The notes below the pieces were generated by a model, which saw only the letters and a list, made by a program, of their open reading frames with translations, was not told the DNA's origin and ran no database searches. Shown here one piece after another: positions 4,187 to 33,572 of a DNA stretch of 38,696 nt. The first letter of the stretch is position 1. Each line of letters opens with the position of its first letter. Source of the stretch: Chrysochromulina tobinii (Eukaryota); assembly GCA_001275005.1 (NCBI GenBank), contig JWZX01003168.1:1-38696 (forward strand), given 5' to 3'. The position numbers were made by a program, and so were the translations under genes.

Positions 4187-4392
4187 CCTGCCGATGATTC
4201 TGTGTGCCGATCACCGCGGCACTTCCGACGATATTCCTAAAGGACCGTTGTCGCACGTCAAGTCAACTCAAGTCTGACACGGCGCTCTCGATGAGCCAGC
4301 GGCAAAATGTGGAGGCACTTGCTCTTGCGTTCCTGTGACGAAACGCTACTTCAAAATCGGGCTTCGTCAAGGAAAAACAAGCACCGAGAGCG

Positions 4393-7497: not shown

Positions 7498-8223
7498 CTT
7501 GAGCGTGCCTCGAACAGCCGGTGCCGAAACGTGGTGTGGGGTTATTGGCGTTTTTGACGTGTGGCGTTATTGGCGTCCGGGGTCCGGGGCTTCTTGCTTC
7601 CCTTTCGCGGGAAAAACTCGCATGCGGACCCGGGCGGATGAGCGTCGTCGGTTACGCGTCGGTCGTTTCATTTGTTGTTTTTCGCGCGTTGCGCGCGTAC
7701 TAGCTAATACGGGGCTTTTATTGTTCCGGCCGGCGGTTGCTCGGGTAGGGGGTTGCGGCCGTGCGCGCCCGCGCCCCCCGGCGGCGGCGCGTCTCTCGCC
7801 CGCTCCGGGCGGCGGCCGGCGCGTTCGATCCGTCAATAAAATAATTTCACCCAACATGGGCGCACTCGCGCGCTGCGTTTTCGGCTTTAGCCTTTACGTT
7901 ACATACTGTACGCAATAACGGGATGTGGTCCATCCGCGAGAACTCTCAGGCTCAGCCCATGTGCCACACACTCCTACGACACAACGCTCGTAGGACACCA
8001 AACGAGGTCAAGCATCGATCCGCTCCCAAGCCAACACAGCGAAGTCCAGCCACGGGACAGTTCTAGTTCGAAGAGACGTCGTGCGGCGAGACGGTCATTT
8101 GACCTCACTTGCTCATTGACGAAGCACGGCTGGGCTGGTGCAGACATTCCACCGCTTGGAAATGCCCGACCCCGCCGCTCTCTTCTCGTTGAGCGGCATG
8201 CCATCCACCGCATGCCCTGACCC

Positions 8224-16179: not shown

Positions 16180-16420
16180 CTCGTTTCCCAGGCGGACCTT
16201 TTCTCCCGAGTGCACCTGTGAATGTTGGTTGTTGCCACAAACGCACGGCGCGAAAGCAATTCTGCCAAAGAATGGTTCGGCTTCGAAGACATTTCCGCTT
16301 GGTGCAATTGTGGCGCCAAACACACAGAGATTTTCCACCGGCCATGATGATCCTCGGTGGACGCCGTGCCAAAGCACACGTTGCCTTGGCAATGAGCCTC
16401 AGTGTCGCCAAGAGACGACA

Positions 16421-18934
16421 ATGAGCCTCAGTCACGAGATCGAGTACACCGTCACGAAAGCGACCGACGAGGTGGAGGGCCACACGGCAAGCTCACTCGC
16501 GACTGGCTCGCGCGGCGGCTGGCTCGCCCACTCCACCTTTGGCACGGCGTACATCGACGTCTCCTTTGGCACCGAGTTCTCCATACACAGCATGACGCTA
16601 GTGGCAGTCGGCTGCTCGCGGCTGGTGGTGACACTCAAGTCGCGCAAGGGCGAGCGCGACAATTGGATGGGCGGCAGCGCCGCTCTGCGCGGGGCGGGTG
16701 CCACGCAGACTGGCTCAGTGGTGTACGACGGCTTGCTGCCGGGCGAGGAGTGCAAAAAGTACCTCGCGGCGCGCAACACCGGCGACGGGCTGAAGGCGGT
16801 CGCGTCGCAGGAGGAGTGGGCAGGCATGCGCATCTCGCTCACGCCCGCCACCGGGCACGAGACCTTTGGGCTCAAGAAGCTCACCATCGACCGTCAGCCA
16901 ACCAAATCCGAAGTCGAGGCGCGCCGCGCTGCGATCGCGAAGCAAGCAGCGGAGACGGCCCAGAAGGCGGCGGCGACGGCGGCAGCGACGGCAGCGGCGG
17001 CCTCTGCCCCCGCTTTCGCGTCGACCTCCGTCCCTCTGCCGCCGGCTATGCGCCCGCCAATGAACGCGAGCGCGCAGGCGGGCGGCGTGGGCGGCCTGAG
17101 ACGATCAGCGTGCGCGTGCGGCAAGCCGGGATGCAACGGATGCGGCGGCGAGGGCAAGGTGCGCTGCAAAGCGCACTCGCTCCTGACCTGCCTCAAGATC
17201 TCGAAGAAGAATCGCCCGTTTTGGGCATGCCCCCTCGTACGCAAGCCGGGCAGCCTGCCGTCGGGCGAGGCGTGCGGCTGGGTGTGCTGGTGCGACGAGG
17301 CGATCGGACACGTGGCGACGGTTGAGAAGGTCGTCGAGCTGCCCGAGGAAGAGGACGAGCAGCGCGCTAGCGCGCCCTTCCCCGCCGCCGCTGCCACGAA
17401 GCCAACGAGCGCGCCGGTCAGCTCCACGGCCGCCTGTGCACCACTTGCTGCCTCCGCCTCCGCCTCCGCCAGCAGCAGCGGCAGCGGCGGCGGTACGCGG
17501 CACGCGGCGGTCACCATGGAGGCAGTCTTGTCGTCGTACCAGGCGAAGCTGCAGGCAATGAGCGTCAAGGAGCTCAAGGCAGAGGGCACGAAGCGTAACG
17601 TCGACCTGAGCGGATGCCTCGAGAAGAGCGATCTGGTCGTGCACCTCAGCGCCGCGTATGCCACGGCCAAAGCCGATAAGCTCGCGGCGTATGCCGCAGC
17701 CAAGGCTGAGAAGCGAGCTCTCGAGGCGAAGGCGGCGGAGGCGAAGGCGAAGGCGAAGGCGGCGGAGGCGAAGGCGGCGGAAGTGGCGCGAGAGGGGGGC
17801 AGCGCAAGCGGAGGCTCGTCCAAATTAGGGTCGTCCATGGCCGCCGCCTCCTCGTCCGGGGCCGCCTCCTCGTCGTCGCCCCTCACCCAGCCGGCGATGC
17901 CCAAGACGGCGAGTCGCGGGGGCAGCGCTCTGTGCAAGCGCTCCCACGCCGCGTCGACCTCCACCGACGGCGCCGGCAGCTGGAGCAGCGGCGGGGCGGC
18001 GGCGGGCGCTCGCGGAGCCGCGGACGGCGCCGGCGCATCGTCATCGTCGTCCAAGCGCCCCACGCCCCCGCCGCCGTCATCCGCCACCTCCGCCTCGGCG
18101 TCGTCGTCGTCGCGCAAGGCGGATGCTTGGCTCGGAGTGGCAGAGAAGAGCTCTGGTGATGAGGATGAAGACGATGAGGACGAAGAGGACGAGGCGGCTG
18201 CGGCGGCATCTGCCTTGCGACGGCGGACGTGGGCCGCCGCAGATGCCGTGGGCGGCGGGCGCGCGGCACGCGCCAGCAAGGCGAGTGGCAGCACGCGTGG
18301 CGTCAGCGCCCGAGGCGGCGCCGGCGTCGACGTCGGCGGCGCGGACATGTGGCGCGACAAGCGCGGCAACATCGTCGCCCCGCCCGCTGGGCTCGCGGGT
18401 GGTTCCGAAGACGACCCAATGGCCATCGACGAGGGCGACGAGGACACGGCGGCGGCGGCGGCAGCCGAGGCGCGTCGACGTGCGCAGCAGGAGGCCGCCG
18501 AGCGAGCAGCCGAGGAGGCAGCTGATGACAGCGTGACTGAGGAGGAGGACGACAAGGACGAGGCGGAGAGCGCGCGGCAGCCGGCGCCGCTGCTGTGGCC
18601 GCCCGGGCTGACTCGATGCCCCTTTGACGTGCGCTGCCCGCTGCGACCGCACGGCTGCCTGCGCGGCAACCCCACACATCTACTCAAGGAGTCACACACC
18701 GTCGAGCACGTTCGGCGCCAAGCGCGCAAGGTGGACTGGGCCCATCCTTTTGGACCGCTCTACCGGCTCGTCAGGGATGCCGGCCTGCCGCACGCGCACT
18801 GCACCACGAAGGACGCATGCCTGCGGGCGCTCGACACGGCGCTTGACGCCTTTGAGGTGGCGGGCGCTCGACACGGCGTGCCGTCGGCAACCGCGGGGGA
18901 CTACGCAGCGATGGCGCCAGAGCCGGTCGACTGA
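16421..18934 (+). CDS. Putative DNA-repair scaffold: XRCC1 N-terminal-like domain, GRF zinc finger, SAP/HeH-like motif, acidic tracts and PBZ-like finger
   Basis: XRCC1_N-like 16421-16890 (H..SSL...W...IHSM...W..MRI...FGL). zf-GRF 17165-17296 (CKAH...RPFWAC...CGWVCWCD). SAP-like 17558-17640 (MSVKELK...GCLEKSDLV). PBZ-like 18617-18697 (C...CLRGNPTH...SH). Confidence 0.7.
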   Translation: MSLSHEIEYTVTKATDEVEGHTASSLATGSRGGWLAHSTFGTAYIDVSFGTEFSIHSMTLVAVGCSRLVVTLKSRKGERDNWMGGSAALRGAGATQTGSVVYDGLLPGEECKKYLAARNTGDGLKAVASQEEWAGMRISLTPATGHETFGLKKLTIDRQPTKSEVEARRAAIAKQAAETAQKAAATAAATAAAASAPAFASTSVPLPPAMRPPMNASAQAGGVGGLRRSACACGKPGCNGCGGEGKVRCKAHSLLTCLKISKKNRPFWACPLVRKPGSLPSGEACGWVCWCDEAIGHVATVEKVVELPEEEDEQRASAPFPAAAATKPTSAPVSSTAACAPLAASASASASSSGSGGGTRHAAVTMEAVLSSYQAKLQAMSVKELKAEGTKRNVDLSGCLEKSDLVVHLSAAYATAKADKLAAYAAAKAEKRALEAKAAEAKAKAKAAEAKAAEVAREGGSASGGSSKLGSSMAAASSSGAASSSSPLTQPAMPKTASRGGSALCKRSHAASTSTDGAGSWSSGGAAAGARGAADGAGASSSSSKRPTPPPPSSATSASASSSSRKADAWLGVAEKSSGDEDEDDEDEEDEAAAAASALRRRTWAAADAVGGGRAARASKASGSTRGVSARGGAGVDVGGADMWRDKRGNIVAPPAGLAGGSEDDPMAIDEGDEDTAAAAAAEARRRAQQEAAERAAEEAADDSVTEEEDDKDEAESARQPAPLLWPPGLTRCPFDVRCPLRPHGCLRGNPTHLLKESHTVEHVRRQARKVDWAHPFGPLYRLVRDAGLPHAHCTTKDACLRALDTALDAFEVAGARHGVPSATAGDYAAMAPEPVD

Positions 18935-19390: not shown

Positions 19391-20092
19391 TCACCACAGC
19401 TGCTGGCGCGGCGTCGAGCCGACGATGTAGGTTTTGGGGTTCTGGGCGCTCCTGAGCTTGAGGGCGGGCGACATGCGCTCTTCGCCTTCAAGCTCTTTAG
19501 CCTGAACAACGGCGGCGGCGATCTCATGCGGCGTCCACCGCCGCGTCTCGCCGTCCCCCCCAAAGTACTCGCGCGCATCCGGCATCTTCCGCCGCAGACA
19601 TTCCTTGGCGCGCGCCTCCATGAACGCAAGCTGCTTCGGGCGCGGGTCGAGCATGGGAAAGCACTGGAAGAGAGTGTGCGAGGGCGGCGCCTCGAGCATC
19701 ATTTTTTGCGCCAAATCGTAGTACGCGTTCGCCGCCTCGAAGTGGCCGAGGTGGTGGCAGCACGTCGCGAGGTTGTGCATGATGCATGCGTGCGTGTCCG
19801 CGTCGATGACGCGCACACCACCTGAGACGCGGCTGGCGGCATCGATGTACGCGAGAGCGTCGATCATCTCCTCGAGAGCGTGCATCCACCATTGCGCCTT
19901 GCCGTAGATGAGGCCATGCGCGAGGCTCTTTTCGAGGGCCTCCTCATTCTTGCCCACGAAGTAGTTGATGCGCGAGACGATGGTGCTCCGCAAGGTCTCC
20001 TCAGTGAAGACTATCGGGCTCTCCTGGATGAGCAACGGCGCCGACGGTGGCTTTATTACGATGTTGAGTTTCGGGGGCGAAGGACGGTCCAT
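19391..20092 (-). CDS. Hypothetical TPR-like helical protein
   Basis: Coding-like ORF from ATG 20092 with a TPR-like segment ACIMHNLATCCHHLGHFEAANAYYDLA. Confidence 0.6.
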   Translation of the reverse strand: MDRPSPPKLNIVIKPPSAPLLIQESPIVFTEETLRSTIVSRINYFVGKNEEALEKSLAHGLIYGKAQWWMHALEEMIDALAYIDAASRVSGGVRVIDADTHACIMHNLATCCHHLGHFEAANAYYDLAQKMMLEAPPSHTLFQCFPMLDPRPKQLAFMEARAKECLRRKMPDAREYFGGDGETRRWTPHEIAAAVVQAKELEGEERMSPALKLRSAQNPKTYIVGSTPRQQLW

Positions 20093-20462
20093 GGAGCCGC
20101 AGCTGAGTGCAGGTACACCGTCTGCCGGTGCCGGGTGGAGGGCTCGCTGCAGGGTGCAGGTGCGCACAAGCTGCACCAAATAAAGTTTTTTGAAAATGTG
20201 TGCGGAGCCTTAGCTCCAAGAGTGTATGGACACCAACGACAGGAGCGCGCCGCTACGGGCGCACACGGCGGGGAGCCGCCAAAAACCCCAAAGGGGTTAG
20301 GGCCAGCGCCGGGGGCAACAGTAGCGCATCGCGTGGTGTGAACAAAGGGGGCGCCGGAACCTCCGAGCCCGCCTTCTCACCCCTTGGCGCGAATCGCAAA
20401 ACATGGCGATCGCATCCTCACGCACCCCGCTCGCACACACGCTCAAGCTCACGCAATAAAAC

Positions 20463-23400
20463 ATGCCGATCACGTTCGCCATTCACTACAAGCTCGCGGC
20501 CATGGGAGCCTCGGCCGACGACACCAAGCGCGACCGTGCGCTGCACCCGGTCTATGAGGCGGCCGGCAGCGCGAAGTTTGATGGATGGCTTCTTCACCCG
20601 CCGCGCGACGGCGAAGTCGACGGCGGCATCGCCGGTGTCCTTCCGGGCACGCTGGCAAAAATTTGCATGGCATTCGTGCAGTGTGGCGACGATATTGTCA
20701 ACGAAAGCGTCGGGGATAATGGCCTCATACTGGCAGTCGCCTGGGAACGCATCCTCACCACCCTCGCCGAGGTGCACGGGGGGGATGGCTCGAAGGCCAT
20801 TTCGCTGGGCTGCCTCTACGAGGACATGGACGCCAAGCTCTCCAAGGCCACGCCGGTACAGCTCGCTCAGCTCACTCTCTACAAGCACGACCTCGGATCG
20901 TCCATCTCGTTGGCGAGTAAGCCTGTGGCCCCGGTACCGAGCACTGACCCAGCGGCGGCTGCGGCCAATGCGGCGGCGCTCCTTGTGCACGCGCAAGCGC
21001 TGGGCAATTGGGAGGGCAACGAGAAGCACCCCTTCACCTGGCTTCGCCTGCTCACGTTTGGCGACCTGCGCGACAACACTACGGGGCGCCTCGGCGCACT
21101 CGGAAGGCTGATGTGCGCCACCCCCACGTGGGTCTCGGACACGACGCGCGGCGAGGCCATATTCCGGCGCACGCTCACGGCCCTCGCCAAAGCCGCGATC
21201 GAGGGCACCGACATCCAGGTCGGCGACGCCGACGACGTGGCGGGCTGCGTGGCCGAAAAGCTGAAGCTCATCGATCTCCCTCGCGCGATGGAGAGCTTCG
21301 GCGGAGCCACGCAGGAGGCGCGCTCTCGCGCGCTCCTCAAGGAGATCAAGGCGATTGTCAACCCCGCCGCGCGGCAGGAACTTCTTCGCGAACGCTTCAT
21401 CGAGGCCATCGACCGGCTGGCGGGCGTACGGGCCCTCGTGGGCATCCGCGCTGGCGGCGGGTGCGACATGGGCAGCTCCGCATGCTTCGGACTTTGCGCG
21501 GAAGTGGCTACTCGGATGGGCCTCTGCCGCTCGGAGGACGAGTTCTCCTGGGCGTCGCTGCGGGCGCTGCGCGACGAGATCGCTCACCTCGACGAGATGC
21601 TCAGCGCCGAGCCATGGGTCCACCGCACGGCGCGCGACCGTGCGGATCGCGTCATCGATTTCCACCGGACGCAAGCGAAGCGGTCGTCCGCCGCGTCGGT
21701 GCTGTACTCTACGCCCGACCGGACCGCGACGGGACGCAGCCCGGACACCGCGCTGACCGCGGCGGAGTCGCGTCTAAGAGGCACCGTGCCCAGACACTTC
21801 CAAGGGGACTTGTCTCAGGCTACTTCCAATACGCAGTGGCTCGCGCTCAAGGCGGCCATCATCGGCCGTCTAGCGTTGGGCGGCAAAGGATGCCACCTGG
21901 ACGCCATGCAGATCGGGGCATCCGGCGTTGCCCTCGACCCGGCTACGAATATGCCCAAGCAGCGCCAATGGTGCCCGCTGATGGCCATGCTCGCCGAGGG
22001 CGCCACGCGTGGCGTGGATGCGGCAACACTCGATCCGGAGCTGCAAGCACTCACCGACGCAGCGCGCGACCGGTGGCCGGAACTGTACGGCCGCACAGCA
22101 GGGCTCCAACTGGCGCTCGATAAGACGACGCTCCCCGAGGAACTGGAGGGCTGGTGCCTGGACGAGCTGGCGAAGGCATTTGCGTCCGCCGACTGGAGCG
22201 CCATCGACCTCGGCGCGGCATTCGAGCAAACGCGGGCACGCATGCGCTGCGAGAAGTTCGAGGCCGGGCCCGCGGACAAGGCGTACACGAACAGGCGCAG
22301 CATCGAAAATGCTCTCAAGGTAGCCGAGCCCATGCTCATGCTGAGAGGCTTCGGCGGCAACGGCAAGGGCACGTTACCCTTCGTCCTCGAGGAGGTGCGC
22401 CAATCATGGGTCCTCTACGGCGGTCAAGGGGCGCACGAGAAAACCCTCGCGAAGCTAGCTTCGGAAGGGCGCGCATACGTGGTCGACACCCTCGCACATT
22501 TTGGTCGCGTACGCCACGCGGCCATCGCAACCAAGAACCCTCTCGCCCCGGACCACGAGCGCACGACCACGGCGGCGGCAGCTCAGCGCTGGGCGCGCCA
22601 CCTGATTAAGCTGCAGGGCGCTCTCAGCCTCGCCAGCTACGCCGAATATTTTGGCGGCGGGGGCGCGGGCGGAGGCGGCGGAGGCGCGAGCGGGCAATCT
22701 GGCGACGGCGAAGACGGCAGCGGCGGCGGTGGCAGCGGCCACGGAGCCGGCGGGAGTGGCAAGGCAGCCAAGCGCCAGCGCAAGGAGCCGAATGGAGATG
22801 CCGCGAGCGACACACGCGGTGTGACGATGTCCCTCAACCTCAGGGCCGGCACCCTCACCATCACCCCCAAGGACGGCAAGCCCAGGACCTACATCACCGC
22901 GCGCATGCGCGAGCGCGCCAAGAACCCTAAGCGATGCTGCTTCAAAGGAATGGCGGCGGCGGCGCTCCAGATGCAAGAGCGGGCATTCTGCGACTTCGAC
23001 CACAAAGAAGGCAGCACAGAACACCAATGGGCGGCAGCTGGCCCAAACCTCAGTCTCTGCCGATCTGACGGCGTGGAGCGCCCGAAGAAGAAGCAAAAAA
23101 CGGGTCACGATGACGACACGGCGACCGGCGCGGGCGGCGACGACGCCGACGACGGCGACGACGACGACGGCGACGAAGGCGACGCCGATGACGAGGGCGA
23201 CGCAGATGACGCAGGCGGCGCTGGAGCGGACACCGGAGCCGGCGCCGGCGACCCACCCGCACCCGGCAAATCCTCGGCTGCCGCGCGCGGCGGCGGGAAA
23301 GGCGGGAAAGGCGGCAAGGGCAGAGGCCGCGGCGGCAAGGGCGGCGGGCGGAGCGGCGGCAAGGGCGGTCGCAAGACTGTCGCGTTCACAGCCGCTGCGA

Positions 23401-24698
23401 CCACGGCGCCCACGGGCGCGTCGGGGGACGCCACCTCCACAACAACCGCGGCAGCCGGCATGCTTGCCGACGTCACTCAGGCGGGCTATTCCGAGGACGG
23501 CGGCATTGTACGCGTCACGGACCCTGTCCTCGTACAAGCGCTCACGCGCCTCAACCCGCCAATCACGACCATCACTATCGGCGACGACAGTGGGCTCCTA
23601 CGCGACGCGTCCAATAGCGCGGGATGGCCCGCTGTTTCCACCTCCACACTGCCGTGCACGAGCGCGCGACCAGGATTCAGCTTCGCGGGCGACGTCCGCG
23701 ATGTCCTTCGCGTCGCTCAATGGCGACGTGCGATCGCCGCTCCTGACTGGCGCCAGCAAGCTGCGCGCATGGGCCTCAGCATGGCGGCGGTCAAGGCTTC
23801 GGACGGCCGCATTTTCGCATGTATGGCCGCGTGGCTGTACCTTTGGTGCACAGCAGCGGCAGCTGTGTGCATCATGCAGCCGGATATCTTCACAGTCGAT
23901 TTCTATGACGCGCCCTTCGTTGCCACATCACCGGACGCGTGGGGCGACAACGGCAGCGACAGGACGCTGCTTTTCTGGCGTGGCTCCGCGATGCCAGTGC
24001 CGCCCGACGAGAGTGGCAGCACTGCGGCGCCCGTCCTCGAGCGCGCGCAAGCAGGGGGGCAGGCGTGGGCCCCGTCATCCTCGAAACTCGCACACGGTAT
24101 CGCCACGCAGCTCGTGCCCGACGGCAGCGGACCCGACCTTCGGTTCGCCGTCGAGATCGAGCGACTCGCAGCCGCCATGTACTCGGTAGGGCTCCCTATC
24201 CCGCCATGGTACAGCCGTGAGGACGGCGGGCCGCCCGAGCGGGCGGAGCGCGCCTACATGCACGAGCGCGGGCTCGGCGATGGACGACGATTGGACGGCC
24301 GTACCGTCCCTCTGCTGGCACGACGGGATCTCGGCGATCCCGCTTGGCGTGCCGGCATCAACGAGCGCCTCGCCGACACCCTTATGCACTCGAGCATTCC
24401 AGTGGTGTCACGGCGCGGGCACGCGCTCGCCGATGCGTACAGAGCGCTCCGGCGGACCGACGCTGAGCGCGCGCTACGCAAAAGGGCGGCGCGCGCACAA
24501 CGCCGCCTGGAACACGATCGGCTGCGTCCACGCCGACACGCCCGCAACGAATTCGGTCGCGGTCGTGCCGGGACGCATCGTCCACGGCGTCGTCATGCTG
24601 CTATTCCCTGGCGCCTCGCACGCAGCGGCGACCGTGGCAGGTCGCCCGCTGCCTTGCGCGCACGGCGCCACGTCCGAATCGCGCAAACTCATCACTAG
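20463..24698 (+). CDS. Retroelement ORF1: Gag-like region, Cys/His cluster, acidic and KGG/RGG tracts, degenerate phage-type C5 cytosine methyltransferase-like domain
   Basis: 1411-aa ORF upstream of pol. CC...CDFDH...H at 22935-23024, acidic and GGKGG tracts, MTase-like block at 23562-24113. The Gag call is positional. Confidence 0.75.
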   Translation: MPITFAIHYKLAAMGASADDTKRDRALHPVYEAAGSAKFDGWLLHPPRDGEVDGGIAGVLPGTLAKICMAFVQCGDDIVNESVGDNGLILAVAWERILTTLAEVHGGDGSKAISLGCLYEDMDAKLSKATPVQLAQLTLYKHDLGSSISLASKPVAPVPSTDPAAAAANAAALLVHAQALGNWEGNEKHPFTWLRLLTFGDLRDNTTGRLGALGRLMCATPTWVSDTTRGEAIFRRTLTALAKAAIEGTDIQVGDADDVAGCVAEKLKLIDLPRAMESFGGATQEARSRALLKEIKAIVNPAARQELLRERFIEAIDRLAGVRALVGIRAGGGCDMGSSACFGLCAEVATRMGLCRSEDEFSWASLRALRDEIAHLDEMLSAEPWVHRTARDRADRVIDFHRTQAKRSSAASVLYSTPDRTATGRSPDTALTAAESRLRGTVPRHFQGDLSQATSNTQWLALKAAIIGRLALGGKGCHLDAMQIGASGVALDPATNMPKQRQWCPLMAMLAEGATRGVDAATLDPELQALTDAARDRWPELYGRTAGLQLALDKTTLPEELEGWCLDELAKAFASADWSAIDLGAAFEQTRARMRCEKFEAGPADKAYTNRRSIENALKVAEPMLMLRGFGGNGKGTLPFVLEEVRQSWVLYGGQGAHEKTLAKLASEGRAYVVDTLAHFGRVRHAAIATKNPLAPDHERTTTAAAAQRWARHLIKLQGALSLASYAEYFGGGGAGGGGGGASGQSGDGEDGSGGGGSGHGAGGSGKAAKRQRKEPNGDAASDTRGVTMSLNLRAGTLTITPKDGKPRTYITARMRERAKNPKRCCFKGMAAAALQMQERAFCDFDHKEGSTEHQWAAAGPNLSLCRSDGVERPKKKQKTGHDDDTATGAGGDDADDGDDDDGDEGDADDEGDADDAGGAGADTGAGAGDPPAPGKSSAAARGGGKGGKGGKGRGRGGKGGGRSGGKGGRKTVAFTAAATTAPTGASGDATSTTTAAAGMLADVTQAGYSEDGGIVRVTDPVLVQALTRLNPPITTITIGDDSGLLRDASNSAGWPAVSTSTLPCTSARPGFSFAGDVRDVLRVAQWRRAIAAPDWRQQAARMGLSMAAVKASDGRIFACMAAWLYLWCTAAAAVCIMQPDIFTVDFYDAPFVATSPDAWGDNGSDRTLLFWRGSAMPVPPDESGSTAAPVLERAQAGGQAWAPSSSKLAHGIATQLVPDGSGPDLRFAVEIERLAAAMYSVGLPIPPWYSREDGGPPERAERAYMHERGLGDGRRLDGRTVPLLARRDLGDPAWRAGINERLADTLMHSSIPVVSRRGHALADAYRALRRTDAERALRKRAARAQRRLEHDRLRPRRHARNEFGRGRAGTHRPRRRHAAIPWRLARSGDRGRSPAALRARRHVRIAQTHH

Positions 24699-27600
24699 CG
24701 CCGCCGAGGCGATTGGAGACGTGCTCATCGACGCGGGCGCCGCCCGCGACGCGCACGCTGTACGGGCTCGGAGCGCTCTCGCCGCCATCCTCACACGGGG
24801 AGACGTGTCGCTGGCCATCGTGGTCACACTCGTCCCGCCGCAAGTGGATATCAGCTCAGAGGCGGTCAGCGCAGGCTACTCATGGCAGCGCGCGGCGGCG
24901 GCGGCCGGCTCTCCCCGGCACGCTCTTGCGTGCATTGCGGAGCAATACCTGCTACGCTGGGTTACCGCGTCGAGAGATATCTGCATCGCGGGCGTCCGCA
25001 CCGGGGTCGCCAAGGCGCAGCCTACGGCGCGTGCGCTCGATCCCAATCGCCTGAAGAGCGTCGACATGGATGCCGCTACGCGCGAAGAGGCAAGCGCGCT
25101 ACTCTGTGTGGCAGACGGGCTGCTCGAGGCCGCCGCACGCGAACCGCACCTTGCTGACGCGCTCTTATGCTGGCGCGAGAAGGTCACCACCGCGCGCGAC
25201 TTCGCACCTCCGGCAATCGTCGCCGCGGCTGGGCGGGAGCCGCCCGCCTCTCTGGCGAGCAAGCCCTTCAAGCACCGCTGCACTATCCCGAGCACGACGC
25301 CGGTCCCAGTGCAATGGAAGGCGCCGCGGTGGCCCGTTGGCGTGCCAGCACCGGCGACCTTGCTCGACACGTACACGCCGACGGCCCGCGCCGAAGTGCG
25401 CGCGCAGCTGGAAGCGGTCGCTCGGTGGAACGCGACGCGGGTAGGGGGCACTATGGCGCCCCGCCCCGTCCACCGCAGCTGGAGTGACAAAGCGCGCCTG
25501 CCATGGTTCCAAGGCCGCGTGCTATGGGAACGCGACGGCAAATGCGCGCTCGTCGACGGGCGTCTTCCCGCCACGCGCGTTCGCATGCACCGCGAGGCGG
25601 CGCTCTGGCTGCTGCGCGACTACCCGCACAGGCAACTTGTGTCTTTCCTGGTACATGGGGTCACGCTACACGACGACCTCCCTCTTCAGACGTCCATCGC
25701 CGCCAACCTTCTCTCGTTCTACGACGTGCGTGGCGGACCTGACGGCGTAGCCGAAGAAATGCACGGGCTCAAGGAGCGCGGCTGGTATCTCAGCAGCGCG
25801 GGCCTAATTGCGACATCCGCGGCGGTCGCGTCCACAGCAGCGCAGAAGGCGGACACGGCGGCGATGGCGCCAGTGCAGCCCGCGGCGGAATTGACCTCAC
25901 TGCGAGAGGCGCGTCTGATGACGTCGCCGGCCAGGATAAACCCGCGCGGCGCGGTAGCGCGCAAGGATTTAGGGCCGCCCCGAGGAGTAGCCGAGCTCGG
26001 TCACCCACGGCGCGAAACGGTCACGACCGACACCGGCGAGATCGTCACCTCAGTCAACGAGGCCACCAGCACGGAGCGCAGCGTGGCCACCGGCGACGAT
26101 TTCTGGGCGCGGCCGGAGATCAAGCCAAGGCCGAGCGATCTCGTGCTCAACCTGCTCATCCTTCGGGCCATGGGCAATTGCCTGCGGCCGGCCTTCGGCG
26201 GCACGGCACCGGCCATCCTGCTCATCCTCTTCGACTACAAATACTTCTTCCACTCGCTGGCGTACATGGCAGGCGAGGTGTGGAAAACCGGATGCGCCGT
26301 GCCCGCGCGGGCAGCACCGGGCGTGGCGCACCGTAAGCGCTACGACGTCCTTGCGGAGCTCGTCCTAGCCATGGGGTGGACGCAGGCGAGCAAGGTAGCC
26401 CAGGACTTTGGCAACGCCCTTATGTGGCTGCTACTTCGCGCCTTGGACAAGGCGCTCGCCCCGCACGTTGCCGAACTTCGCGAGGCGAGCAAGGCCTTCG
26501 ACTCGATGTGGAAGGGCAGGCTGGCGCTCCAACATGACGACTATGGTACACAAGCGCGCGTCGTCACCGCGTTGCAATACACTGACGACAGCGTCAAGGC
26601 GTGCCTGGGAGCAACGGCCACCGTCACCACCATTGTTGAATTTTGTCGCATCATTGGGCCTCGCTTCTACGCCGGGCCCGACGCACACGAAGCCGCTCGT
26701 GGCACGGTCACGCGATCCGTCGTTGACGAATACGGTGTCGCGCTGCAGGCGTGGCGGCAGCTCGCGCCCAAAGGCAGCGTACGCGCCCACGGGCGAGACG
26801 AGCCCGCGCCGGCCCATGCTAGCACCGTCCCCATTGGAAGGGGAACCGCCGCTGGCAACCCATTTCCAGTCACCGCAACGCAAGACGCGACTCGGGTGAC
26901 CACGGGCTTCGCCTGCTTTCTCGCCAGCGTGCCAGACACATCAGCGCGCGCGGTCGGAGCCCTTCTGAACTTACAAGTCGCCCAGGGGCATGACGAGCGG
27001 CTCGCAGGGCAGCTCCAGGCATATGCCGATCAGCTCGCCTCTCGCGTGCGCGCGGGAGAGCACCTCGCTCTTCAATGCCCGGGCTGCCGCTGTCCCTTGC
27101 AACCGGGGCGATGCCACGCCACGGTTTTCGCGGCGGCGATCGCACAGCGCTGTTCGATAGCACTGGAGGAGGCGGCAGGTCCGCCGACGGACCCAGTTAT
27201 CGCCCCGCCACGGGAGGCCCTCGGGCTTGATCTCGAGGCGGCCAAGATGCACAAATGGCATCTCGGCGGCAGCGGCATCTGGACGGGAGTCGGCGTGAGC
27301 GCAACATTCCTCGTCATTTGGGTCCCGCAGGCGAAAGCGGTGCGATGCCTGGTCGAGATCGCCGACGTGCTCGACGGGCGCTGCGAGGTGGCTCGGTACC
27401 GCAGCCTTCATGGGGCCCTCGCCGACCTCGTCCTCCCCACTGGTGGTGATTGGTACCGCATGCAGGGCATGGCGGTGCCGCTGCGGAGCGACCAGGAGCT
27501 CGGCGAAGGCCCCAACGTTCTTGTGCGCGAGAGACCGCAACTGTGGAAACGACTCAAGGCCTGGCAGACTCTTCTGGCCAACAGCCCTGGATCACCCATG

Positions 27601-30600
27601 ACCGCCACACTCCCAGCGGCGCATTCAGCCGTGCGCACCGACATCGTCACCTGGGACATTGGCGGTGATGCCGCCAAAGATGGCGTGCCCAAACAGGGCC
27701 TAGGCGCATGGTTCTATGGAGTCTGGTGGTGCGCGCCACTTGGGGACTGGCCTGCGCTCGCAGACGCGCACATCACGTGCCTCGAGCTCGTCGAGGTAGG
27801 GCTCGGCGTCGTCATGACGGCCAGATGGCTCGCCGGGGCGAAGCGCGTACGGCTCCGGGCTGACGCGATGGCAGCCTTCCTCACGCTACGTGCGCGGCGG
27901 GATGACGGCTCGCTCGCGCGCGGCGCACAAGCAGCGGAGCTCGTCGCGGCGCACGAGGTCATCATGCAGCAGCCAGAGTGGAAACGGCTACATGACGGTC
28001 GGTGCGAGATTCTCACCGAGCAAACGTTCGGCGAGAGCATGCTGCTGCACGACGCAGCTAGCCGCAACAACCCCGAGCTCATCCGAGACGTGAGCGCTGC
28101 CCTAGGCGTCGTCCCGAAACGGATCGAGCTCTCGGCACGTGCTCGGGCATACCTGCAGGACGTGTCGAACGCGCTCCTCGACACGCGGCGAGGCGCCGCA
28201 CAGCACGCACCGATGCACGCCGCCGCACTCGAACACGGCGCGGCCGGCAATGGTTCAGGGCCGCGCACGCCCTTCTCTCAGGCATGGCCTGGAGCAGCTG
28301 CCTCATCAGCTCGCGCGATGCAACAGCAGATGCAAGCCGACGAGGGCACGGTAGGCGCGCCTCGGCCGTGCGATGAGCAGCTGTGGCTTTTTATACTTTT
28401 CTACGAATCCTACCTCCTCGCCCTCGACGACGAGGCGCTCGCTGGCTTACCGTCTCCACCGTCAAGCGACTACTGGGATTCGCCCCACTCGATTGACAGC
28501 TACAACAATTGGGAACCACCAGACCTCGATCCGCCTGACGAGTTGTCGCCCGGCGAGTGGTTCCCAACCGGCCTCCATCACGCGTGGTCACCTGGCGACG
28601 ACCCGTACCCCGATTCGCCGCAGGGCTCTGGCGGCGACACCGGCGCGGTCGCGGACGCCGTCGACACCGGCGTGACCTGCGCGGCGCGAGATTCACACGT
28701 ACCCATGCACGCCGCTGCTCTCGAGCACGGCGCGGCTGCCAACGGCACTGGCCCGCGCACGCCCTTCGCTCAGGCTTGGCCGGGTGCGCCTGCCTGCTTG
28801 CTGCGCGCAATGCAACGGCAGACGGGCGACGGCGCATCCGACGCATTCACAGCTGGCGCGGCGCAGCACGCCCGGCAGGCGCACGCCGAAGGGCGTCGCC
28901 ACGGGTGCGCGATGGCACCGGCGCCAGCGCTCGGGGCACCATCGGGAGCACCTGACCTGACCGACAGAGTCCTCGCCCGGCGCACCAATCGGAGGCAGGC
29001 CCAGAGCCCGCCCGAGTGTGACGACGACGAGCACGCGACCGCCTTCTCGGCCGCCCTGGCTCGCTGCGCCTCAGGACGCGCACGTTTTCGCGGTCCAGGC
29101 GCCGACCCTGTCGCGCCTTCCCGCGCCCTCGTCACGGCTCGCGCGGTGGCGCCCCCGCTCCGGGCGGTTGAGATCGCGCGGAACGCGCTGCTTACAACGG
29201 CGGCCGCGCCCGCCATGCCAGTGGCGGCACGGCGTGGAGCGGCCGAGCTCGAAGAATCGCAGCGCATGCTCATAGAGCGCAGCATCAAAGACGCTCGGTG
29301 CGACGAGGACGGCCTCGGCATCAGCGGCGCGAGCGACGAGCTCCTTCGAGGGCTGCTCACGGCGGCAATGCTCGCGGTCGAGAAGCGCTTTGCGCCCTCC
29401 ACTCGCGGGCAGGACCGATCCTACTGGAGAATGTGGGCCGAGTGGTGCGATAGCATCGGCACGCCGCCTCTCCGCACCAATTCCGCCGCCAACGACGGGC
29501 GCATCGAACATCTACACCGGCGCGAGGTTGCCCTGGCTCTGGGCGCTTTCATGACCTGGGCGGCGGAGGCGGAGCAACGCGGCTACAAGACTGAGAGCAT
29601 GCTCAACCGGCTGCGCGGCGTGGCGCGGCGCCACTGGGCGGTCACGATTCGATTCGTGTCCCTCGCGCTCGTCGTGCAGGCGGCGCAGGGGCTTGTGCGC
29701 GAGCACATCGATGCCCACGGCGCTGACGCGCTGCGTCGACGCTCCAAGGAGCCACTTGAGACGGCGGAAATCTTCGCGCTCCTCAATCTCCCGAAGGGCA
29801 CCCTCGTAGCCCACGGGTCCTCGTGCGTGGTAGTCGGCGACAACCTCGAATGGCAGGGCGTGGTCGTCTTCATCAACTTGTACTGCACGGGCGGCTGGCG
29901 CAAGGAGGCCATCGCGCTGGGGCCCAAAGAGGTCTTCGGGGGGCGCAAGCTCTCCTTAAGCGAGGTCACGTATCGCATCGGAGGCACCCTCCACCGGGAA
30001 CCGACCGTCGCGATCCTCCAGCAGATCACGTGGGGCGACATGTGCTACATAAACCCGGTGCCTTGCAAGAATGACCCGGACAACTCGAAATTCGGGAGCT
30101 CGCCGGTACCGTCGCGCTACCACGCGACGCAGCCCATCTGCCTGGTGCGCGAGCTCGCCAAATACGAGATCATGCGCATGCGCGCCGACCCCATCGCCTC
30201 GTCTCGGACGCCCCGCAAGGAGATGCCGCTCGTGCTGTCGCCCGCCGGCCGCTCCTGGGCCAAGGCCGACCTCGGCAAGTTCTTCGACGGGCTCATTCGA
30301 CACGTGTGCTCTGAGGAACGCGCCAAACAGCTCTCGGTACACAGCTTCCGCGTGTGGCTCGCCTGCGCGCTGCTCGCAGCAGGGGCCACGCCGGAGCAGA
30401 TTATGCTGATGGTGCGATGGTCGTCGGAAGCCGCGCGGAAACTTTACGCGAGGCTCGCGATGACGACACAATGCTCGCTCCAGGCCGGCGCCGTCGACGC
30501 CAGCTTCGATTCGATCCGAGCGCACACGCTCCTTGACGCGTCCGCGGCGGCCGCTGTCAGCGACGAAGCGCGCGCCGCCGCAGAGGCGCTGCAGGCGACC

Positions 30601-30813
30601 ACCTCCCTGATCGACGCCGTCACGGTCGGCGCAGGAGCACACGTCGCCGCAGCCAAAGACCTCCGGCGCACATGCAACATCGACGACGATGACGTCTTTG
30701 GACTGCTCGACGAGGCGAGCCATGCGCTCGAGGGCCTCGCCGTGAGCGCGGACGCTGCCTTCACGGAGACGGCAGCGACCGAGCCGCAGGCCGAGTCCGA
30801 CGACGAACCGTGA
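24217..30813 (+). CDS. Retroelement ORF2: reverse transcriptase (with DUF4326-like insertion), RNase H and tyrosine recombinase in a single frame
   Basis: RT: LFDYKYFFH (D 26233), LAMGW (26371), YTDD (26578-26589). RNase H: GDAA (27667), LEL (27784), RAD (27862), DAASR (28051). Recombinase: APST...W, GWR (29899), K (30067), HSFR (30340-30351), RW, Y (30445). The true start is probably reached from ORF1. Confidence 0.9.
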   Translation: MRTAGRPSGRSAPTCTSAGSAMDDDWTAVPSLCWHDGISAIPLGVPASTSASPTPLCTRAFQWCHGAGTRSPMRTERSGGPTLSARYAKGRRAHNAAWNTIGCVHADTPATNSVAVVPGRIVHGVVMLLFPGASHAAATVAGRPLPCAHGATSESRKLITSAAEAIGDVLIDAGAARDAHAVRARSALAAILTRGDVSLAIVVTLVPPQVDISSEAVSAGYSWQRAAAAAGSPRHALACIAEQYLLRWVTASRDICIAGVRTGVAKAQPTARALDPNRLKSVDMDAATREEASALLCVADGLLEAAAREPHLADALLCWREKVTTARDFAPPAIVAAAGREPPASLASKPFKHRCTIPSTTPVPVQWKAPRWPVGVPAPATLLDTYTPTARAEVRAQLEAVARWNATRVGGTMAPRPVHRSWSDKARLPWFQGRVLWERDGKCALVDGRLPATRVRMHREAALWLLRDYPHRQLVSFLVHGVTLHDDLPLQTSIAANLLSFYDVRGGPDGVAEEMHGLKERGWYLSSAGLIATSAAVASTAAQKADTAAMAPVQPAAELTSLREARLMTSPARINPRGAVARKDLGPPRGVAELGHPRRETVTTDTGEIVTSVNEATSTERSVATGDDFWARPEIKPRPSDLVLNLLILRAMGNCLRPAFGGTAPAILLILFDYKYFFHSLAYMAGEVWKTGCAVPARAAPGVAHRKRYDVLAELVLAMGWTQASKVAQDFGNALMWLLLRALDKALAPHVAELREASKAFDSMWKGRLALQHDDYGTQARVVTALQYTDDSVKACLGATATVTTIVEFCRIIGPRFYAGPDAHEAARGTVTRSVVDEYGVALQAWRQLAPKGSVRAHGRDEPAPAHASTVPIGRGTAAGNPFPVTATQDATRVTTGFACFLASVPDTSARAVGALLNLQVAQGHDERLAGQLQAYADQLASRVRAGEHLALQCPGCRCPLQPGRCHATVFAAAIAQRCSIALEEAAGPPTDPVIAPPREALGLDLEAAKMHKWHLGGSGIWTGVGVSATFLVIWVPQAKAVRCLVEIADVLDGRCEVARYRSLHGALADLVLPTGGDWYRMQGMAVPLRSDQELGEGPNVLVRERPQLWKRLKAWQTLLANSPGSPMTATLPAAHSAVRTDIVTWDIGGDAAKDGVPKQGLGAWFYGVWWCAPLGDWPALADAHITCLELVEVGLGVVMTARWLAGAKRVRLRADAMAAFLTLRARRDDGSLARGAQAAELVAAHEVIMQQPEWKRLHDGRCEILTEQTFGESMLLHDAASRNNPELIRDVSAALGVVPKRIELSARARAYLQDVSNALLDTRRGAAQHAPMHAAALEHGAAGNGSGPRTPFSQAWPGAAASSARAMQQQMQADEGTVGAPRPCDEQLWLFILFYESYLLALDDEALAGLPSPPSSDYWDSPHSIDSYNNWEPPDLDPPDELSPGEWFPTGLHHAWSPGDDPYPDSPQGSGGDTGAVADAVDTGVTCAARDSHVPMHAAALEHGAAANGTGPRTPFAQAWPGAPACLLRAMQRQTGDGASDAFTAGAAQHARQAHAEGRRHGCAMAPAPALGAPSGAPDLTDRVLARRTNRRQAQSPPECDDDEHATAFSAALARCASGRARFRGPGADPVAPSRALVTARAVAPPLRAVEIARNALLTTAAAPAMPVAARRGAAELEESQRMLIERSIKDARCDEDGLGISGASDELLRGLLTAAMLAVEKRFAPSTRGQDRSYWRMWAEWCDSIGTPPLRTNSAANDGRIEHLHRREVALALGAFMTWAAEAEQRGYKTESMLNRLRGVARRHWAVTIRFVSLALVVQAAQGLVREHIDAHGADALRRRSKEPLETAEIFALLNLPKGTLVAHGSSCVVVGDNLEWQGVVVFINLYCTGGWRKEAIALGPKEVFGGRKLSLSEVTYRIGGTLHREPTVAILQQITWGDMCYINPVPCKNDPDNSKFGSSPVPSRYHATQPICLVRELAKYEIMRMRADPIASSRTPRKEMPLVLSPAGRSWAKADLGKFFDGLIRHVCSEERAKQLSVHSFRVWLACALLAAGATPEQIMLMVRWSSEAARKLYARLAMTTQCSLQAGAVDASFDSIRAHTLLDASAAAAVSDEARAAAEALQATTSLIDAVTVGAGAHVAAAKDLRRTCNIDDDDVFGLLDEASHALEGLAVSADAAFTETAATEPQAESDDEP
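28204..28824 (+). repeat. Two diverged copies of an approximately 42-codon motif in ORF2 (about 28204-28329 and 28696-28821)
   Basis: HAPMHAAALEHGAAGNGSGPRTPFSQAWPG versus HVPMHAAALEHGAAANGTGPRTPFAQAWPG. Confidence 0.95.
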
Positions 30814-31444
30814 GTCCCGCCCCGAAACGGGCTGTGACGCACGGTCACATAGCAGTGCGAGGCGAGCACTACGGTGCCAGCCCGAGCACGGATGCACGAA
30901 CGCACGGCCATCGCAGTGCGCGGCGAGCACCACGGTGCCTGCCCAGTAACCTCCGCTGCGGCGGAGGCAACCAGCAGACGGCGCGAAACCCACACGGGTC
31001 GCGGCAGTCGGCAGAGCACGGCAGAAGCAGTGCGGGGTATCACGCAGACGGCGCGGAACCTTCGGGTCGCGGCAGTCGGCTCAGCACGGCAGAGGCAGTG
31101 CGGGGTATCGTGCAGAGGCACGTACAGGAACGCCAGTGGCGTGACCAACCCACCCACCCGAGAGGGACATACCATAGGGAGGCGACAGATCTGCGCTCAG
31201 CCGCGAGGGACAGTAGCCAGAACGACCGAGATGATCGCCGAGATACACTATCTCGGAGTTTATCTCGGCGAGTTCTGGCGAAGTGCCCAGGGCACGAGAT
31301 GCAACCGAGGATCGGTCGGACCCAATTACCGAGTATGTCCCTATAGCATAGTAAGATGCTAATCCTGTGTACCTATCCACAGGTCACTATTCACAGAGCT
31401 TGAGCGCTCCAAACGAAACAACCATACCAGCCCCGCGGGGCTAA
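30814..31444 (+). other. Structured 3' non-coding region of the retroelement (tandem duplications and a hairpin array)
   Basis: Duplications at 30838/30901 and 30974/31044. Six ACGG(C/T)...GCAGT stems, several UNCG/GNRA-capped hairpins, and 10-11 bp perfect inverted repeats. Confidence 0.75.
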
Positions 31445-31583
31445 CCATAAATACCATATTCTGAACATGAACGCATCAGCCCTGCGAGGAAGGCGACCCA
31501 TTCCCACGCAGCAACACCGCTTTTCAGCTTTTCACGCGTCTTGGCGCGCAACGGTTGTGAATGTGCCTCAACTTTTGACGAAC

Positions 31584-33572
31584 ATGCCTGCAACCATGCG
31601 TCGGACCTGTTTCCGGTCAGCCAGCCCGGCGAGCCTACCGCCTGTGCTGCCACAGGTCACCACCGCCGCCCTGCAGGGTGCACTGCAGGCCAAAGAGAAA
31701 CGCGCCCGGGAGCAACGTGGCAAGGTGACAGATGCGGAAGAGGTAGAAGAGGCCACTTGGGCCGCGCCCAAGGAAATCACTCCAATCGAGACGTTGCTTC
31801 TCCTCCCGGAGAGCGCGGCGCGCGACGATACGCACGAGCTGGTCGTTAACAGGCATGTGCTCGCAGGCTGGGTCGAGCAAGAGTCGCCGTGCTGTGCTGC
31901 AGCAAGCCTCGCCTGCATGTTCAACGCCCTTCGGCGGCATGAAGCCAAAGATGGCAGCGCCATGAAGCCGGCGCCAGTGCTCGCAGCCTTTCGAGATTTA
32001 TTTCTGGGAGAGCTCGCCGACAAGCGTGTGATGACGGCACGTGCACTGAGCCTGCCGGAGGCGAGCGGCGCTGCCAGTCTTGGCGTGCTGCTGCGCTGCG
32101 TAGAGCATCGGCAGGCTCGAAAAGGGAAGCCGATCACGGGGCGCAAGGAGAGGGCGGTCAGCACGGCGGAGCTACGCACGACACTCCGGGAGGTGGTCCT
32201 CGAGGGCCCCGACCCTGCCGCGCGCGAGCTGCTACTCCCAGCCGAGCAACGGCCCTCAGAGAGCCATGAGGCGATGCTGTGGCAGCGCCTGCGCTCCTGC
32301 TACAATGTGAATGCTCCCGCCAATCTCACCGCGGTGGATGCGCCGTCTGCCGCCCCAGTGACGGATACTCCAGCGACGATAGACGCTGCAGCGGCGTTGC
32401 CAGTAGCCAGCACCAGCAGCGCACCCGCTGCCACGTCGGTGGCAACGGGCAGCAGCGGCAGCAGCGGCAGCAGCGGCAGCAGCGGCAGCAGCAGCGGCAG
32501 CAGCGGCAGCAGCAGCGGCAGCAGCGGCAGCAGCGGCAGCAGCGGCAGCTGCGGCAGCTGCAGCGGCAGCGGTAGCGGCAGTGGTGCCGCCGGTGGCCCG
32601 ACGGATGGCGTGAGAATGTACCTGCTCAAGCGCGCCCCGTTCGAAAAGTTCGGCGTGCGCGTGGGCTGTGGATACCCGAATGGACCCCCGCTCGTGACGG
32701 GTCTCTCCGGGGTCGCGACGCGCAGCAAGCTCAAAGTGGGCGACATCATCCAGCGAATGGATGGTAAGGAGGTTGCGAGCGCGGAGGCGGCGACTGTCGC
32801 CTTCGCCCGCGCGGGCACGAGTATCTCCTTGCATGTGCAGCGGCCAGAGGGCGGCGCAGACGCGCCGCTCGAGGGCCGCGCCGCAGAGGCCGACGCGGCC
32901 CTGATCAAGCTCCTCCACAGCCATGTCGGCTTCTGTAAGCTCACTTGCGACGCGCCGTCAACAGCGGCGATCGGCAATGCGCATCTGCTGCGCGCGAGCA
33001 CGGTGCTCAACGGCGAGACAGAGAAGTGCATGCGCGTCTACGGCAGCCGCTTCTGTGGAATCAACCGCGACGACGACGCGGTGCTGATCAGTGAGACCGA
33101 CTCGGCTGAGGCACAAGAGAGCCAATTCCACCGGCTCTGGACGGCTTTCATCAACGAGGATACGGCGCTCATCGCACACTTTTGGAACCATTACGCGCCC
33201 ATCTACGCGCTCCGAAAGTACCACGACCGGACCAGCGGCGAGATGCAACTAGAGCTGCTCACTGCGAAGCCGGCGCAGCGCCCGTCGCGCTGGATCACGT
33301 GGGAAGCGATGCGCGGATGGCTCCTGCAGTGGAATGGGTACGGCATCTTGAGGTTTGACCGGATCGAGGCGAGGCGAGGTGAGAGCCCGTGGCGCCAGGG
33401 CATGAAAGCTGCGCCTGGTGTGAGGACCCTTTGGGGCCCCAGCAGTGTGAGGACCCCGGACTCGGACTCGGACCGGCTCGACGGCCAGAGCGCTATTTTG
33501 GAGAGCCCGTGCCCGGCACCAGAAGTGGACCAGACGCCGGCCAGACGCCGGTCGGACGCCGAACTACGGTAG
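31584..33572 (+). CDS. Papain-fold (C39/BIVM-like) putative cysteine peptidase with an inserted Gly/Ser tract and PDZ domain
   Basis: EQESPCCAAASLA (Q..C), HFWNHY (His), LLTAKPAQRPSRWITW. PDZ-like KFGVRV...LKVGDIIQRMDG...ISLHVQR at 32610-32843. Alternative ATG at 31467. Confidence 0.6.
   Translation: MPATMRRTCFRSASPASLPPVLPQVTTAALQGALQAKEKRAREQRGKVTDAEEVEEATWAAPKEITPIETLLLLPESAARDDTHELVVNRHVLAGWVEQESPCCAAASLACMFNALRRHEAKDGSAMKPAPVLAAFRDLFLGELADKRVMTARALSLPEASGAASLGVLLRCVEHRQARKGKPITGRKERAVSTAELRTTLREVVLEGPDPAARELLLPAEQRPSESHEAMLWQRLRSCYNVNAPANLTAVDAPSAAPVTDTPATIDAAAALPVASTSSAPAATSVATGSSGSSGSSGSSGSSSGSSGSSSGSSGSSGSSGSCGSCSGSGSGSGAAGGPTDGVRMYLLKRAPFEKFGVRVGCGYPNGPPLVTGLSGVATRSKLKVGDIIQRMDGKEVASAEAATVAFARAGTSISLHVQRPEGGADAPLEGRAAEADAALIKLLHSHVGFCKLTCDAPSTAAIGNAHLLRASTVLNGETEKCMRVYGSRFCGINRDDDAVLISETDSAEAQESQFHRLWTAFINEDTALIAHFWNHYAPIYALRKYHDRTSGEMQLELLTAKPAQRPSRWITWEAMRGWLLQWNGYGILRFDRIEARRGESPWRQGMKAAPGVRTLWGPSSVRTPDSDSDRLDGQSAILESPCPAPEVDQTPARRRSDAELR
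32448..32583 (+). repeat. Coding (GGC AGC AGC)n microsatellite giving a Gly-Ser-Ser tract
   Basis: Directly visible tandem ggcagcagc units. Confidence 0.95.

Follow-up and report, generated by a model that had tools for sequence, protein, structure and literature searches.

A Ngaro-like tyrosine recombinase retrotransposon copy from Chrysochromulina tobinii that lacks inner repeats and whose motifs of reverse transcriptase, RNase H and recombinase share a single frame

The window analyzed here is a stretch of 38,696 nucleotides (nt) from Chrysochromulina tobinii (contig JWZX01003168.1, assembly GCA_001275005.1). Positions 20198 to 31427 hold an element that we interpret, with a probability of roughly 80%, as a copy, without the inner A2-B2 repeats, of a Ngaro-type split-repeat tyrosine recombinase (YR) retrotransposon family in which motifs of reverse transcriptase (RT), RNase H and YR share one frame and which likely moves as Ngaro elements do. 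This interpretation draws on the frame itself, on 12 related loci from metagenome contigs (L001 to L012) and on related proteins (P numbers). The features that carry it, all on the + strand, are as follows.

20198..20463, + strand: repeat A1, the left end of the element, with a match of 78% to the internal A2 of L009 and L010
20463..24698, + strand: open reading frame 1 (ORF1), 1412 codons counted stop to stop, starting at 20460, with a low-complexity linker and a decayed methyltransferase
24470..24510, + strand: +1 frame break that separates ORF1 from the long frame; siblings are in frame here, and the break is common to L001-L003
24190..30813, + strand: long frame, 2207 codons stop to stop and 2198 from the GTG at 24217, with Nudix-like, RT, DUF4326, thumb, RNase H, linker and YR regions
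25597..26679, + strand: RT fingers/palm, D682 at 26233 and YTDD (797-800) at 26578; motifs conserved
27220..27630, + strand: RT thumb/connection, with weak fold matches to retroviral RT thumbs
27631..28110, + strand: RNase H-like domain, D1160, E1199, D1225 and D1288 at 27667, 27784, 27862 and 28051
29257..30564, + strand: tyrosine recombinase, R1904 at 29899, K1960 at 30067, H2051-x-x-R at 30340, W2077 at 30418 and Y2086 at 30445
31207..31427, + strand: repeat B, single in the window, 96% identical to B2 of L009, its last letters CCATAC ending at 31427

Results

One frame with the motifs of three enzymes

The original prediction described a single 2198-codon frame with RT, RNase H and recombinase residues. 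Both the frame (24217 to 30813) and the motifs were recovered, and the motifs of all three enzymes are kept in relatives as far as about 25% identity. The siblings P0031 (3444 amino acids, aa), P0038 (3436 aa) and P0004 are continuous across the position of the window's break near 24,490; at 83 to 92% identity, ORF1 through YR forms one frame of ~3,440 aa in these siblings (P0031 is 89% identical to ORF1 and 92% to the long frame). Because they read through in frame, we take the break in the window to be a frameshift, beyond which lie the last ~70 codons of ORF1, a stretch of unconserved sequence. L008 and L012 are single ORFs of 3481 and 3303 aa, and complete siblings carry one frame of 3,300 to 3,500 aa from the first ATG to the YR. 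ORF1 has no match in Pfam or PHROG, is Gag-like by position only, and shares 57 to 89% identity with the first 1,340 aa of relatives that have a single ORF.

In a profile search of representatives clustered at 50% identity, 443 relatives scored E ≤ 0.001, 150 of which were listed. RT, RNase H and YR occur together in 36 of 108 fetched proteins, with the ORF1 N-terminus also present in 18 of the 108; many of these are near-duplicates. Home-made profiles were used to examine 154 proteins, 76 of them without RNase H and mostly fragments; 47 of the 78 RNase H-bearing relatives continue in frame into YR, one only partly. All domains are under purifying selection, with ratios of nonsynonymous to synonymous substitution rates (dN/dS) of 0.05 to 0.31 against relatives: 0.21-0.28 for ORF1, 0.07-0.12 for RT fingers/palm, 0.06-0.11 for RNase H and 0.05-0.08 for YR.

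The RT was assigned from its motifs, from features of the ESM protein model and from a weak fold match of the thumb. The nearest group by ESM features is an RVT_1 cluster (score 0.95, 163 of 256 features shared, 30% of members carrying RVT_1), to which the distant relative P0239 scores 0.97. The modelled thumb has as its top fold match the foamy-virus RT (Z 7.1, root-mean-square deviation (rmsd) 3.4, 87 aligned) and also matched the RT thumbs of Moloney murine leukemia virus (MMLV), HIV-1, HERV-K and cauliflower mosaic virus (CaMV), all at Z < 8, values too low to exclude a common helical arrangement. The RNase H is assigned by motif only, as a putative domain whose residues are kept as far as P0020. 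For the YR, profile matches were obtained to phrog_1 (E 0.0022) and PF00589 (E 0.046); the YR of the relative P0233 clears the Pfam cut-off, and the match to P0020 is 27% identical over 565 aa (E 3.5e-43). Sequence searches of the PDB with RT and YR profiles gave chance matches only, and the Pfam scan matched no integrase family, including DDE integrases. The combination of RT, RNase H and YR without an integrase, a feature of order DIRS, is present here on motifs and weak profile or fold matches, with RNase H by motif.

Split direct repeats in related loci

Seven of the 12 loci reach the 3′ end and five stop earlier; all seven, representing about four distinct elements, carry a 100% identical repeat pair. 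The full order A1-ORF-B1-A2-spacer-B2 is found in two loci, L008 (A pair 263 nt, B pair 241 nt) and L009 (A pair 276 nt, B pair 222 nt), and is partial in L004-L006 (B pair, 216 nt), L010 (A pair, 276 nt) and L012 (106 nt of a pair, up to the contig end). The pairs are direct, and the only inverted pair, in L004, sits in a block that is inverted relative to L005. Ngaro-type split direct repeats with the inner repeats behind the YR are thus present at the family level and absent in the window copy, whose layout is A1-ORFs-B and which has only A1 and one B of the repeat system. Long repeats, whether inverted or split, were absent from a self-comparison of 19900-31800, which showed nothing beyond a 127-nt internal duplication, a single hairpin and some short tandem duplications on the 3′ side. 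The earlier statement that the element has no long terminal repeats therefore holds for the window copy and fails for its family. Because other copies carry split direct repeats, the window copy is judged incomplete, and the apparent replication without repeats is an artefact of that incompleteness. No relatives were found in the viral contig and genome contig collections searched.

The suggestion of recent activity also divides between family and copy: it is borne out for the family by the identical repeat pairs and the low dN/dS, and not for the window copy, which has a frameshift and no A2-B2. Sister copy L009 (also L010 and L011) has several internal deletions (5154-5528, 7547-7970), yet its split repeats are 100% identical, like a recently moved non-autonomous derivative. 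Internal inversions in L004 (5809-6367), L009 (3499-4231 and 6813-7534) and L007 (8784-9332) have no clear flanking inverted repeats; two of them differ between assemblies of the same locus and one is common to L009-L011, and they are probably artefacts.

Repeat B opens with a long hairpin (31216-31279; z -7.2, 0 of 200 shuffles) that also occurs in L009 and L005 and is weak in L008. At the B1/A2 junction the same nested stem can form in three families, with 60 of 60 cells paired and one change on both sides, and the end-to-end join lies at the top of the CCATAC/GTATGG helix. The cDNA of DIRS-1 is mostly single-stranded (PMC7192593; this and all other published work is cited from excerpts), which makes a folded junction a plausible substrate, and the predicted stem would suit such a folded single-stranded cDNA.

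Captured domains

The copy also carries cargo domains and internal duplications, again on the + strand.

23550..23990, + strand: decayed phage-type C5 DNA methyltransferase, catalytic PC changed to PD and motif VI E changed to M
24520..25000, + strand: predicted Nudix-fold domain without a recognizable Nudix box, fold inferred through the relative L012
26680..27219, + strand: insertion of ~180 aa with DUF4326 at the RT palm/thumb boundary; PF14216 at E 2.9e-6, above the cut-off
28204..28822, + strand: linker with an in-frame 127-nt duplication, units 28204-28330 and 28696-28822 at 80% identity
30837..31116, + strand: 3′ untranslated tandem duplications with 61- and 68-nt spacing; unit number differs among copies

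The extra phage-like domains of the original prediction are borne out by DUF4326 and the decayed C5 methyltransferase, both of which also occur in phages. The window's methyltransferase gave no direct profile match of its own, and its identity comes through relatives: across 143 aa it shares 34% identity with P0236, a protein with a phrog_757 match at E 2e-46, and L012, P0090 and P0096 match the same profile (relatives' E values 8e-8 to 2e-46). The relatives' methylase is matched by 22 phage gene records annotated as DNA cytosine methyltransferase, and the L012 model (mean predicted confidence, pLDDT, 76) matches M.HaeIII at E 6e-5. The decayed form makes up one subclade of eight rows (support 100/99, quick tree) and is still conserved (dN/dS 0.17-0.26); we predict an enzyme without activity in the subclade of the window and an intact one in its sister clades.

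The Nudix fold in the window is predicted from the model of L012, in which residues 347-486 align to Nudix domains (best Z 10.8, rmsd 3.4, 122 aligned), and from 35% identity between the window and L012 over the wider Nudix-like region. The DUF4326 insertion (dN/dS 0.10-0.13) occurs at the palm/thumb site in a 13-row clade (support 100/100, quick tree) and is absent in P0020 and P0232-P0239, in which the palm directly joins the thumb. The confident part of its model resembles the RapZ C-terminal domain with a weak score (Z 6.6, rmsd 3.5, 101 aligned), and a tblastn search with the insertion against phage genomes gave no match. Among 48 long relatives scanned, PF00145 was found in 14, NADAR in three, and dNK, zf-CXXC and a weak DUF4326 at a different site in one each. 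The relatives P0294, P0308, P0350, P0333 and P0366 carry NADAR (three), a CXXC zinc finger and, between RNase H and YR, a deoxynucleoside kinase. DUF4326, Nudix and NADAR domains have been proposed to process ADP-ribose derivatives (PMC9503650). Our literature searches found no DUF4326 inside an RT and no Nudix fold in a YR element. One unit of the 127-nt linker duplication is absent from P0007 and P0009-P0011, and L001 has one extra unit of the 3′ tandem duplication.

Locus and neighboring genes

The right end had been placed at 31444, whereas the element ends with repeat B at 31427; the palindrome at 31429-31442, considered as the element end, sits in flanking DNA and was ruled out. No target-site duplication was found, as the sequences flanking the two ends are unlike each other both in the window and in L009, and the left flank terminates in AAAAT at both loci. 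A search for a core shared by target and junction found none (≤1 letter). No empty-site joint was among the contig joints listed, which show presence and not absence. Summed contig depth over 31028-31491 exceeds ten times that of the flanks, which suggests that solo repeats, or others that contain B, are numerous in the host genome.

The surroundings are gene-dense eukaryotic DNA of about 60-70% G+C. On the left lies a TPR gene on the minus strand with its ATG at 20092, and on the right a gene starting at 31467; without the element (between 20092-20197 and 31428-31467), these two head-to-head genes would stand 144 nt apart, so the element may affect a shared promoter. AATAAA occurs at the extreme end of repeat A (20453-20463), just 5′ of the ORF1 ATG, as it does in L009 and L005; we considered it as a poly(A) signal, and L008 does not have it. 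Rfam had no match for the element. RNA run X15 contained 0.13 of the words, was thin on the element and absent on the two flanks, and is not evidence of expression.

Elsewhere in the window, a 954-codon frame at 16070-18934 (+ strand) has no Pfam match and two cysteine/histidine clusters, which we take to be GRF-like and PBZ-like; it resembles a DNA-repair gene of the host, and the contig joints located at 18846-18927 hint at repetitive sequence within its 3′ end. A 1052-codon frame at 4339-7497 (+ strand) fuses a PALP (cysteine synthase-like) domain to a Cys/Met pyridoxal-phosphate (PLP) enzyme domain.

Discussion

The layout of the complete relatives raises the question of how such an element would move. 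By analogy with the DIRS model (PMC7192593), a single transcript extending from A1 into the 3′ repeats would be translated as one polyprotein. RT, RNase H and YR would then act mostly on their own template RNA. The internal B1/A2 join would template restoration of both ends and give a B/A junction, as in the end-restoration scheme of Ngaro elements. The YR would join this junction to host DNA without duplication, perhaps favoring a left flank that ends in AAAAT. The window copy, if correctly assembled, would be the product of recombination between B1 and B2, and with its frameshift it would need helpers or be dead.

Several results weigh against this reading or against parts of it. Pfam RVT_1 was unmatched in the window and in all 48 long relatives scanned (E ≤ 0.001), and Pfam had no RT or RNase H match in the window, L012 or six RT rows. 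The RNase H has no profile or fold match. The RT-RNase H model is poor (pLDDT 49 overall) with a low-confidence palm, and Foldseek found nothing with it. No protease or other route of polyprotein processing was identified. Among the RNase H-bearing relatives, 31 of 78 end ≤450 aa after RNase H, some at contig ends, and the in-frame label requires 9 changes, 4 of them forced, on a fast tree of 66 rows, midpoint-rooted only, that comprises 50 in-frame relatives (four close to the window) and 16 ending within 40 aa. The single frame is for these two reasons not a clean clade marker, and the RT-RNase H-YR fusion is common, not fixed. The trees are made up of unnamed relatives, with named Ngaro, PAT, DIRS and VIPER sequences absent. 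For the B1/A2 junction, folding energy stands out only modestly from that of shuffled sequence (z -0.8 to -3.8), and the number of pairs fails to exceed that of the shuffle control (177 of 500). Finally, the joints listed at 99% likeness in four runs include none from B to A, nor do the 15 shown of the 34 at 85%. L001-L003, the window's near-identical subfamily, all end before the repeats, so that the evidence for A2-B2 comes from relatives 70 to 87% alike and not from this subfamily.

The original prediction proposed a lineage with no long terminal repeats that would use short structured ends to replicate. The window's lack of any long repeat, the strong hairpin that opens B and the lack of a listed B-to-A joint for the window's sequence type would all fit, but we regard it as very improbable: every locus that reaches the 3′ end has its identical pair, which are conventional split direct repeats, A1 and a single B from this repeat system form the ends of the window copy, and contigs linking spacer to B and A to B are present in the runs. 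A contig joining A (20447) to B (31208) appears in all three DNA runs containing the stretch, and a 70-letter loose end ahead of 31207 occurs in four of four runs, 24 of its 30 shown letters agreeing by eye with the A2-B2 spacer of L009; a unique contig begins at 31398. A much closer call is whether the locus is an intact A1-ORF-B1-A2-B2 element whose B1-A2-B2 was collapsed to a single B by the assembler, which would change the state of the copy and leave the family identity the same. We put this at slightly under even odds. Summed contig depth, which is not a copy number, is 683-850 over B versus 43-51 in the flanks, and assemblies of the same locus differ by inversions (L004/L005 and L009/L010), making assembly detail unreliable. 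The window is also identical to L001 over RT-RNase H, yet its YR block (29250-30560) stands at a synonymous divergence (dS) of 0.26-0.28 from L001 and L002, which marks either a recombinant between subfamilies or an assembly mosaic. On the other side, the repeats were resolved in other contigs of the same collection, and recombination between B1 and B2 yields exactly the structure of the window, with solo repeat products reported for Ngaro (PMC8547959). Recombination and collapse give the same picture, and we consider collapse about as likely.

The break near 24,490 could instead be a programmed +1 frameshift at AAA-AGG, presumably like the frameshift site of Ty1, giving excess Gag and a rarer full polyprotein with all proteins still made. 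L001-L003 share the break and differ from the window 55-100 nt downstream, the next 358 codons hold 9 synonymous versus 3 nonsynonymous differences, and AGG accounts for 4-5% of arginine codons. Nevertheless, P0031, P0038 and P0004 are in frame without the site, one or two loci may underlie all of L001-L003, and ORF1 continues into its unconserved tail, so that we find a programmed site improbable and a frameshift mutation preferable. Only marginally less doubtful is the idea that the family is already curated in Repbase or Dfam, or belongs to the SymbioDIRS-Dnmt3 radiation with the same layout. The gene set of Chrysochromulina parva contains a fragment, P0039, that clusters with the 90%-identical relative P0004 and is 82% identical to ORF1, meaning that this genome has been open to curators, and many of the relatives resemble SymbioDIRS-Dnmt3 (PMC5890265) in that their Pol contains a C5 methylase and stops after RNase H. 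In SymbioDIRS-Dnmt3, however, the enzyme is of the Dnmt3 type and the YR is encoded by an ORF of its own, our literature searches found no haptophyte or single-frame Ngaro description, and the sole haptophyte sequence in the excerpted PMC3266345 (Emiliania) was left unassigned.

The most far-reaching possibility, which we offer as speculation and think unlikely, is a large, undescribed microalgal YR radiation that combines a giant polyprotein with a phage-derived counter-defence kit, in which C5 methylases would mark cDNA and the Nudix fold, DUF4326 and NADAR would undo host ADP-ribosylation of RNA or cDNA, and that would integrate from a folded single-stranded B/A junction, as integron cassettes do. 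The repeated capture of ADP-ribose-related domains, if functional, would point to ADP-ribosylation as a defence against transposons in algae. More generally, YR retrotransposons are described as three-ORF elements, and the making and use of their recombinase have been little tested; an RT-RNase H-YR protein in young copies of a culturable alga offers a simple system for the cis action and substrate of the YR. As the RT is invisible to Pfam, protist annotation misses elements of this kind, which form 443 clusters at 50% identity.

Comparison with known systems

Among published systems, the Ngaro elements come closest. Their repeats, of comparable size, are arranged as A1-[ORFs]-B1A2B2 with the inner ones behind the YR (PMC8547959, PMC9210276; layout also drawn from PMC4157794 and PMC3783388), and the order of first gene, RT, RNase H and YR is the same, the named examples compared being Cafeteria burkhardae Ngaro 1-4 (PMC8547959) and Xenopus DIRS-53_XT (PMC9210276). 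They differ in that the Ngaros described in these excerpts have three or four separate, often overlapping ORFs where the window family has one frame, and in length, ~6 kb in Cafeteria (PMC8547959) versus 11-12 kb here; the window family also has an 80-nt A2-B2 spacer and its C5-methylase, Nudix-fold and DUF4326 cargo. Because there is no placement against named references, we call the family Ngaro-like, a label set by repeat layout and gene order, and do not file it as a member. DIRS1-like elements differ, as their inverted terminal repeats and internal complementary region have no counterpart among the direct pairs of the relatives or in the window, which has none. PAT, TOC and Kangaroo share split direct repeats and a YR (PMC4157794, PMC3266345) and carry a Dam-like adenine methylase after RNase H; no such methylase was detected in the long frame by Pfam or PHROG, libraries of low sensitivity that also miss this RT.

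SymbioDIRS-Dnmt3 shares the A-coding-B-A-B repeats and a cytosine methyltransferase in frame with a divergent RT missed by Pfam (PMC5890265); in place of its enzyme type and its separate YR ORF, the relatives here have a phage phrog_757-type methylase, assigned by sequence similarity, and an in-frame YR. The excerpt of a preprint on SymbioDIRS-Dnmt3 (bioRxiv 10.64898/2026.05.21.726589) mentions neither haptophytes nor Ngaro. TATE of Bodo saltans is a YR retroelement whose three genes are likewise joined in a single ORF (PMC6681497), but it has about 1,460 aa aligned, is kinetoplastid and has no such cargo reported in the excerpt; in VIPER/TATE the YR is listed before RT and RNase H, whereas it comes last in the window. 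NADAR-carrying Gypsy and Tx1 elements are retroelements that captured ADP-ribose-processing domains (PMC12477816), as did three relatives here, but they are long terminal repeat (LTR) and long interspersed (LINE) elements, not YR elements. Our literature searches, whose scope excludes Repbase, supplements, the main YR-element reviews and most subscription papers, found neither the family nor its layout described. The proposal of a distinct, possibly undescribed lineage thus survives for a single RT-RNase H-YR frame shared by many relatives, and not for replication without repeats. Judged from sequence, the novelty would lie in the single frame, with ORF1 fused in close siblings, and in the cargo, placed on an otherwise Ngaro-type plan; precedents exist for individual features.

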